30,573 nucleotides of DNA. Source: an uncultured Lachnospiraceae bacterium (GTDB lineage: Bacteria > Bacillota > Clostridia > Christensenellales > UBA1242). The stretch covers positions 1-30,573 of the forward strand of contig CAYJAO010000001.1 of assembly GCA_964368355.1 (NCBI GenBank), written 5' to 3'. The notes below the pieces were generated by a model. It was not told the origin of the DNA. It searched no databases and worked only from the letters and a program-made list of their open reading frames with translations. Numbering within the stretch: position 1 is the stretch's first letter; each line of letters begins with the position of its first letter. A program made the translations under genes and the position numbers. Shown here one piece after another: positions 9,538-10,799 of this stretch.

Positions 9538-9569
9538 TAAGAATAAATATTATTATATACTGGAAAAGG

Positions 9570-9596
9570 TTTGACCCACAATTTGACCCACAATTT
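9570..9596. repeat. 12-bp tandem direct repeat (TTTGACCCACAA x2) resembling tyrosine-integrase arm sites
   Basis: tttgacccacaa-tttgacccacaa-ttt, about 75 bp beyond the tRNA-Leu 3' end. Confidence 0.75.
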
Positions 9597-9636
9597 TAAT
9601 CAAAAATAGGTTATTTTAAGGTGCCTATGGAAAAAC

Positions 9637-9659
9637 AAAAAAAAGGCTACATAGCCTTT
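9637..9659 (-). terminator. Terminator of tRNA-Leu
   Basis: Minus strand AAAGGCT-atgt-AGCCTTT followed by a T-run. Confidence 0.75.
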
Positions 9660-9668
9660 AAATACTGA

Positions 9669-9753
9669 TGGTGCGGACGCCGGGACTTGAACCCGGACAG
9701 AGTTACCTACAAGATCCTTAGTCTTGCGCGTCTGCCAATTCCGCCACGACCGC
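9669..9753 (-). tRNA. tRNA-Leu, anticodon AAG (A34), CCA encoded
   Basis: GCGGTCG TG GCGGAATTGGCAGACGC G CAAGA CT-AAG-GA TCTTG TAGGTAACTCTGT CCGGG TTCAAGT CCCGG CGTCCGC A CCA. Long variable arm, A73, A15/U48, typical of Leu. One U5.U68 acceptor mismatch. Confidence 0.9.
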
Positions 9754-9755
9754 AC

Positions 9756-9949
9756 GTTTTCATTTGTTCCCCACTATATTCTTCGTTGCAAGACGTAAGC
9801 ATCTTGTACTGCATTTGCGAAAAGCAACATTAACAATTATATATATAATTTGTTTAGCGTGATGCTTTTCTTAATCCGGGCTTTTGCTATGCAACGCCCG
9901 TTGTCGCTAAAAACTTGCCCATTGGGGCAACTTTTCTTAACGCTCCAAC
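9756..9949. other. 194-bp hairpin-rich spacer between the tRNA-Leu gene and its duplicated 5' half (possible miniature element)
   Basis: Hairpins at 9789-9806, 9877-9900 and 9915-9930; perfect palindrome AATTATATATATAATT at 9835-9850; 10-bp direct repeat CTTTTCTTAA at 9865-9874 and 9931-9940. Confidence 0.6.
9909..9930 (-). terminator. Terminator-like hairpin downstream of the tRNA half-copy
   Basis: Minus strand TTGCCC-caat-GGGCAA-G-TTTTT. Confidence 0.5.
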
Positions 9950-9989
9950 CCTTAGTCTTGCGCGTCTGCCAATTCCGCCACGACCGCAC
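9950..9989 (-). pseudogene. Duplicated 5' half of tRNA-Leu(AAG), ending after G37
   Basis: 40 bp identical to 9716-9755 (offset 234); the sequence diverges directly after CTAAGG. Confidence 0.9.
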
Positions 9990-10048: not shown

Positions 10049-10077
10049 AATATACCATACAAACTGTATACTGTCAA
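10049..10077 (-). promoter_or_regulatory. Strong sigma70 promoter of the tRNA-Leu locus
   Basis: Minus strand TTGACA (10077-10072), 17 nt, TG-g-TATATT (10054-10049), with an AT-rich upstream region. Confidence 0.8.
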
Positions 10078-10210: not shown

Positions 10211-10561
10211 TTATTTAAATCCTAAACTTATTAATAATGCCATATTCACGCTTCTCATTTTTGCGACATCAAGTTCGGAGATTTTTTCTTGCAATCTACG
10301 CTTGTCCAGCGTCCTTACTTGTTCCAATAATATAACACTATCTCTTGGCAGATTGTAATCAATAGCGCATAATTCAACATGTGTTGGTATCTTTGCTTTG
10401 CTTAATTGGCTTGTTATTGCCGCAACAATTACCGTCGGGCTGTATTTATTTCCCACATCATTTTGGATAATTAAAACTGGACGAACGCCACCTTGCTCAC
10501 TCCCCACAACTGGACTGAGATCGGCATAGTATATTTCTCCACGTTTAATTTGATTCTCCAA
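10211..10561 (-). CDS. mazF: MazF/PemK-family mRNA interferase (EndoA/NdoA-like toxin)
   Basis: [46 protein letters not shown] and [17 protein letters not shown]; TTG start with AAGGA 8 nt upstream. Confidence 0.95.
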
Positions 10562-10799
10562 ATTTTAAATCCTTTTCGTAATTTAGGTAGTTCAGTTCGA
10601 TATTGTCGTAATCTTCAAGTTCTTTCATTGCTCGCAAATAAGCGGGGCATAGGTAAGCATCTCGTACTAAACTATCCTTCACTGTCATATTATGCAAATC
10701 ATCTCTATATTCGTTCAGGGTTGAAGAAGGTAACTTTAATAATTCTTCGTTGTATTTTCCCCAATTTATTTCATTAGTTTTATTATTCTTTTTGCTCAT
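10545..10799 (-). CDS. Putative antitoxin (84 aa, acidic C-terminus, no recognisable DNA-binding fold)
   Basis: Lies upstream of mazF and overlaps it by 17 nt; ATG with GGGAG SD. Function inferred from position only. Confidence 0.6.

Follow-up and report, generated by a model that had tools for sequence, protein, structure and literature searches.

A tRNA-Leu(AAG) gene, probably decoding through inosine, in an uncultured Clostridia-labelled lineage with small genomes

The window analysed here, an entire contig of 30,573 nucleotides, contains a tRNA-Leu gene in which the first anticodon position is encoded as A34 (Table 1). The reading that we favour, with a probability of roughly 0.7, is that this is a functional, single-copy tRNA-Leu for the codons CUU and CUC, whose A34 is converted by TadA to inosine. 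We infer both the expression of the gene and the A-to-I conversion in the window's genome; inosine is the likely mode of decoding because a TadA is present and the anticodon loop matches the known TadA substrate motif. According to this scheme tRNA-Leu(AAG) would take the place that tRNA-Leu(GAG) has in most members of its order. Once the tRNA is transcribed, its A34 would be deaminated by the genome's TadA, and the resulting tRNA-Leu(IAG) would pair with CUU, with CUC and, less strongly, with CUA; CUA and CUG would additionally be covered by the co-resident UAG and CAG tRNAs. The gene is an expected instance of a known mechanism; what is new is the lineage, in which a characterised decoding strategy is a family-wide trait.

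ARAGORN calls the gene tRNA-Leu(aag), one of two tRNA genes in the window, and the Rfam tRNA model (RF00005) matches it with 51.1 bits (gathering score 29, E 2.4e-08) and a full cloverleaf. The anticodon stem is CAAGA/UCUUG, and the loop reads C32 U33 A34 A35 G36 G37 A38. The acceptor stem has 7 bp with one U5-U68 mismatch, which is kept across the genus, and the remainder of the molecule consists of a D arm, a T arm, a 13-nt variable arm, the discriminator A73 and an encoded CCA. The long variable arm, A73 and the NAG anticodon are those of a type II tRNA-Leu, and from these identity elements the tRNA is predicted to be charged with leucine by LeuRS. An earlier sequence-only reading of this DNA had announced an A34 tRNA-Leu(AAG), with this stem and this anticodon position; the gene is genuine, and its stem and anticodon lie as described when the minus strand is read. 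A hairpin similar to the terminator-like one found 3′ of the gene also follows the orthologues in two relatives (G007 and G003).

Table 1. Features of the tRNA-Leu(AAG) locus and sites of the hairpin module.
Feature	Position	Strand	Basis
tRNA-Leu(AAG) gene, 85 nt, type II, encoded CCA	9669-9753	-	ARAGORN; Rfam; orthologues 91-94% identical in nine same-genus genomes
Anticodon A34-A35-G36 in loop CUAAGGA	9717-9719	-	Direct sequence reading; ARAGORN structure
Terminator-like hairpin and T-run, just 3′ of tRNA-Leu(AAG)	9642-9659	-	Consensus scan
Non-conserved rest of the 196-nt insert, between module and intact tRNA	9754-9875	-	Sequence
Hairpin module abutting the half copy	9876-9949	-	Homologous modules in G437 and G324, at the corresponding tRNA position
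Orphan 5′ half of tRNA-Leu(AAG), positions 1-38, 100% identical, ending after G37	9950-9987	-	Within-genome BLAST; sequence
Sigma-70-type promoter (TTGACA, 17-nt spacer, TATATT), upstream of the half copy	10049-10077	-	Scan, 11 of 12 matches
Module sites	Window 9876-9949; G000 C64:1743-1900; L222, L223, L039, L228-L257, L280, L281	- (window)	

The assembly to which the window belongs comprises 609 kb in 91 contigs, with 34% GC, and is rated 84% complete; genomes of the same genus measure 0.8-0.9 Mb. In a scan of named public species genomes, a set that may exclude the window's own genome and its close kin, the closest tRNAs among the matches listed were in MAGs labelled Clostridia or Clostridiales, in agreement with the Clostridia-like lineage first suggested. 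DNA of the organism is present in wastewater and digester metagenomes.

In its 84% complete assembly the window's genome has the Leu anticodons AAG, UAG and CAG, together with Arg(ACG), and no Leu(GAG). The full set was reconstructed in a relative, G007 (5 contigs, 96% complete), in which 40 tRNAs present each anticodon once, except for three CAU (Met-type) genes. Its Leu tRNAs are AAG, UAG, CAG, UAA and CAA, with GAG absent from the full set, and A34 is confined to Arg(ACG) and Leu(AAG). The sequence-only reading had proposed a survey of the Leu set and of other A34 tRNAs, and in both genomes AAG is accompanied by UAG and CAG, with GAG lacking. With UAG and CAG tRNAs co-existing, the superwobble that it had considered is unnecessary; the expanded inosine decoding that it had offered instead is the likeliest mode, with the editing step itself predicted from the TadA and the fit of the loop described below. 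A pattern for the Leu(GAG) anticodon arm matched none of 13 genus genomes. Of the CUN codons in the window's genome 61% are CUU, which also supplies 24% of the Leu codons overall; the share of CUC among Leu codons is 4.5%. The conservation of AAG, the lack of GAG and the CUU-dominated usage therefore leave tRNA-Leu(AAG) as the only cognate reader of CUY codons.

Surveys based on GtRNAdb have placed bacterial tRNA-Leu(AAG) almost wholly in Bacilli, with outliers in Mycoplasma and Prochlorococcus (PMC13249217). All of the orthologues, found in 9 of the 13 genus members, read AAG, and beyond the genus AAG genes turned up in a further genus of the same family as well as in a second family of the order. 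When a pattern spanning the AAG and GAG anticodon arms was applied to 151 sampled family genomes it matched 94, of which 83 had Leu(AAG), 11 had Leu(GAG) and none had both. The commonest state found in an order-wide sample of 301 genomes was GAG; A34 occurred there in at least 43 genomes from at least six families among the matches listed (21 with the window form and 22 with a second form). An exact-pattern scan of species genomes matched at least 120 loci, and ARAGORN called Leu(aag) in 116 of the 120 listed. The hosts among the matches listed include Streptococcus, Lactobacillaceae, Akkermansia and other Verrucomicrobiota, Prochlorococcus, Synechococcus, Synergistota, Planctomycetota, Alphaproteobacteria, Acidimicrobiia and Clostridia MAGs. 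The description of the gene as rare, and of Leu(AAG) as a sporadic exception, is not supported by these counts, in which AAG is the majority state of the family and extends to at least six families of the order and to many phyla; "rare" applies only when textbook model organisms are taken as the standard.

Two structural forms of the A34 tRNA are found in the family. The window form, with loop CUAAGG on stem CAAGA or CAGGA, is present in 37 of the 83 A34 genomes, and the second form, with loop UUAAGG in a GAG-like body, in the other 46; ARAGORN confirmed the latter in G056 and G324. Many second-form genes differ from neighbouring GAG genes solely by G34 → A34, as in the stem CACGU carrying UUAAGG vs. 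UUGAGG, and these comparisons point to what may have been repeated single-step origins. With its full loop UUAAGGG and GAG-type body (e.g., L211/L227 of G056 and L223 of G324), the second form does not conform to the TadA motif at positions 32 and 38. As to the window form, pairwise identities among 19 Leu tRNAs did not separate descent from a GAG tRNA from descent from a UAG tRNA; acceptor and T arms in this set co-vary among the isoacceptors of one genome. In one genus, g8, one species has tRNA-Leu(GAG) and another the window-type tRNA-Leu(AAG) (G020 and G372), and the two tRNAs have a common acceptor stem, including the U5-U68 mismatch.

In this family, which is uncultured and Clostridia-like and has genomes close to 1 Mb, A34 is thus the standard form of the CUY-reading Leu tRNA, reached either as a bare G34 → A34 change of the GAG tRNA or with a loop that mimics a TadA substrate. 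Since GAG-bearing relatives exist within the same family, and even within one genus, the group offers an independent natural experiment on the spread of inosine decoding in bacteria, and on the co-evolution of TadA specificity with the anticodon loop.

The enzyme in question is encoded on the minus strand of another contig of the window's genome (C31, locus L225:347-796), as a 149-aa ORF with HAE and PCxxC motifs, so that the inspection of TadA suggested with the original description has a positive outcome. The protein scores 144.3 bits against the TadA equivalog NF008113, just below the curated cut-off of 150, and its best PDB matches are all TadA structures (7cph, Staphylococcus aureus 2b3j and Streptococcus pyogenes 2nx8; E 1e-36 to 1e-34). 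TadA was also found in 41 of the 41 relatives searched. The anticodon arm alone suffices for recognition by bacterial TadA. The canonical bacterial substrate, tRNA-Arg(ACG→ICG), shares with the window tRNA the sequence U33-A34-N35-G36-G37-A38, a 7-nt loop and a 5-bp stem; it differs in having C35 rather than A35, in its amino-acid identity, and in lacking the type II body with its long variable arm. Within the window's genome the loop of tRNA-Arg(ACG), CUACGGA, differs from that of tRNA-Leu(AAG), CUAAGGA, at position 35 only, and the latter has the U33, A34, G36, R37 and A38 of the TadA motif. It also fits the motif YUAMGRA of the S. pyogenes TadA (PMC11472039).

The tRNA-Leu(AAG) has been characterised experimentally in Streptococcus and Oenococcus. 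I34 was found by experiment in S. pyogenes, S. mutans and Oenococcus oeni, with full editing in the streptococci (PMC11472039, PMC13249217), and it is present in the tRNA-Leu(AAG) of S. mutans and oral Streptococcus (PMC13249217). Streptococcus Leu(AAG) genes that were recovered here have the same loop as the window gene and a stem different by one base pair. Because bacterial TadA requires only the anticodon arm, and because the loop matches that of Streptococcus, editing to I34 is the best-supported reading for the window gene. The E. coli TadA leaves Streptococcus tRNA-Leu(AAG) unedited (PMC11472039), and editing here would therefore require a TadA that tolerates A35. For this reason, and because the C-terminal extension found in the S. 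pyogenes enzyme is missing from the C31 protein, we infer I34 and state it as a prediction. Alignment of the C31 protein with solved TadAs revealed nothing diagnostic of A35 tolerance. The contigs of four possible RNA runs gave just the conserved 5′ part of the Leu tRNAs of other organisms, with nothing gene-specific over position 34.

The Lactobacillales tRNA-Leu(AAG→IAG), known from S. pyogenes, S. mutans and O. oeni, has the same anticodon and an identical loop. Both there and in the window's family the genomes are AT-rich and make heavy use of CUU, AAG and GAG are mutually exclusive within a genome, and TadA is the only candidate editor. The host of the window differs in being a Clostridia-labelled lineage with genomes of 0.8-0.9 Mb, rather than a member of the Bacilli, and in belonging to a family with a second A34 form (UUAAGGG), which is not described for Lactobacillales. 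The mutual exclusion of AAG and GAG was reported for families of Lactobacillales, with kinetic data in which GAG prefers CUC and IAG decodes CUU and CUC equally well (PMC13249217). The CUU share of Leu codons is 24-35% in nine AAG genomes of the window's family and 13.5-34% in six GAG genomes, which are overlapping ranges; the AAG genomes tend towards more CUU and less CUA, in samples that are small and related. This contrast is a trend, consistent with the Lactobacillales result, and is no test of that result. Compared with tRNA-Leu(GAG), the usual bacterial reader of CUY codons, tRNA-Leu(AAG) occupies the same decoding slot; the G34 of the former requires no editing and cannot read CUA.

Bacterial tRNAs with an unmodified A34 do exist. 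An example is the Mycoplasma tRNA-Thr(AGU), encoded, like the window gene, in a reduced, AT-rich genome, and in such cases TadA has been lost or does not recognise the loop. A functional tRNA of this kind would read CUU by Watson-Crick pairing and CUC poorly, with the rare CUC codons helped by the U34 of tRNA-Leu(UAG). In an orthogonal system unmodified A34 read mainly U-ending codons, and CUC with about one-third of the efficiency of CUU (PMC11066159), and CUC is scarce here. The rejection of Leu(AAG) by the E. coli TadA speaks for this alternative as well, and the 46 family genomes with UUAAGGG, off the TadA motif at two positions, suggest that A34 may be tolerated without a good fit to the enzyme. 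It is nevertheless rather unlikely for the window gene, which, in contrast to those cases, combines a TadA in the same genome with a loop that fits the motif. This loop is identical to the tRNA-Arg(ACG) loop at six of seven positions, and is the very loop that is fully edited in Streptococcus in vivo. Even the E. coli TadA achieves partial editing when an AAG anticodon stands in the context of the Arg2 loop. A functional tRNA-Leu edited to I34 therefore remains our preferred reading.

The arrangement of the locus is less easily reconciled with a functional gene. On the minus strand the order is promoter, half copy, 196-nt insert and intact tRNA-Leu(AAG). The statement in the sequence-only reading that both copies read AAG is literally true but misleading, for the second copy is a 38-nt tRNA fragment and no tRNA gene; the locus holds a single Leu(AAG) gene. 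The promoter stands where relatives have the tRNA promoter. Nine loci of the same genus have no half copy, and there a similar promoter immediately precedes the intact tRNA; the arrangement in the window is therefore derived. The part of the insert adjoining the intact gene offers no more than a weak TATAGT, resembling a −10 box, some 23 nt before the tRNA; a promoter scan of this segment found none, and BLAST gave no match to it elsewhere in the sequences searched. A group I intron was considered for the insert and rejected, as the sequence past the insert restarts at tRNA position 1.

The half copy and a terminator-like hairpin thus stand between the intact gene and its ancestral promoter, no good promoter is seen immediately upstream of the gene, and this observation stands against the favoured explanation. 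Taken further, it could mean that the insertion, by severing the promoter, has silenced the gene or left it dying, with other tRNAs reading CUU and CUC. The promoter would now drive the half tRNA and then run into a hairpin with a T-run, and the 196-nt insert offers no convincing replacement. We consider such silencing very improbable. The gene is intact, with no disabling change relative to its orthologues, and it is the sole cognate reader of a codon that specifies nearly a quarter of all leucines. The combination of half copy, module and intact gene is also found in two other genera, and the stem of the hairpin is weak, with six pairs. The MAG is fragmented and incomplete, and this alone might speak for an error of sequencing or assembly, or for a contaminated bin; such an explanation can be dismissed for practical purposes, because A34 recurs in orthologues from many independent assemblies (nine genus members, 83 family genomes and the 43 or more order-sample genomes among the matches listed) and AAG recurs in the exact half copy.

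The gene is accompanied, in the insert, by a hairpin module of about 74 nt, in which an outer arm pairing GTTG with CAAC is combined with two hairpins, the first of them invariant and with a T-run. Its invariant core is AAAGTTGCC, N3-7, GGCAAGTTTTT, followed by the second hairpin and flanked by variable arms. In G437, which has a first-form tRNA, and in G324, which has a second-form tRNA, the order is likewise promoter, 5′ half ending in UAAGG, module and intact tRNA, with the last about 220-234 nt past the half copy. The hairpin core was found in 35 of the 151 family genomes, nearly always next to fragments of tRNA genes, in one to six copies each, some in tandem, and the number of module copies differs within the genus. 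Nearly all of the 37 module copies inspected lie within about 300 nt of a tRNA gene, and at least 12 different tRNAs are involved; most are flanked by direct repeats of 16-79 nt that consist of pieces of tRNA genes with leader or trailer sequence. A related copy lies by tRNA-Arg(UCU) in both the window's genome and G007, and in G007 a decayed tRNA copy with a module adjoins an intact one. The insertion point in the window follows G36-G37 of the anticodon loop; elsewhere insertion follows the GG of the D loop, the GGG of the variable loop, or the T stem.

Searches for a relationship to known elements gave little. Rfam, at permissive E-values, assigned no family to the insert or the module. Reverse transcriptase (PF00078) was absent from the five genomes searched, and a Y1 (IS200/IS605) transposase was found in the window's own genome, on contig C88, and not in module-rich genomes. 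The surroundings of the two tRNA-adjacent integrase genes of G007, out to about 20 kb, contain neither a module nor a tRNA fragment. Covariation in the outer helix, scored in a single alignment register, gave 49% paired cells and a score of 0.072 vs. 0.059 for shuffled alignments, with 8 of 500 shuffles as high, and RNAalifold predicted the invariant hairpin alone. The module is a candidate for a non-autonomous element that targets tRNA genes, for an integrase-borne remnant, or for a leader or attenuator. We tentatively raise the possibility, to which we give well under even odds, that the half tRNA is the scar of a group of undescribed, small (approximately 75-100 nt), non-coding hairpin elements that insert into tRNA genes after G-runs in the loops. 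If that were true, the insertions would survive only where an intact duplicate adjoins the disrupted tRNA, and the elements would shape tRNA loci in minimal genomes with single-copy tRNA genes.

Further features were noted in the neighbourhood and elsewhere in these genomes. Just downstream of the tRNA there is a tandem 12-nt direct repeat, TTTGACCCACAA, in two copies at 9569-9600 on the plus strand, which resembles the arm-type sites of integrases. A similar repeat lies after the orthologous tRNA of G007, together with a C-terminal fragment of a tyrosine integrase (G007:C1:156694-156822), and this tRNA has therefore served as an attachment site. The Y1 transposase of the window's genome (144 bits) belongs to an IS200/IS605-type element with a TnpB-like ORF at G000 C88:232-2224, the only such element in the five family genomes searched. 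An ORF for a toxin of the MazF/PemK family (PF02452, E 4e-35) is found at 10211-10799 on the minus strand, overlapped by an upstream 84-aa ORF that has no Pfam match; tRNA-Trp lies on one side of this pair and the half tRNA on the other. In most same-genus relatives (L002-L008) a conserved ORF has its end immediately before the tRNA promoter; this neighbourhood has been replaced in the window by the MazEF pair and tRNA-Trp, and the locus has therefore been rearranged.
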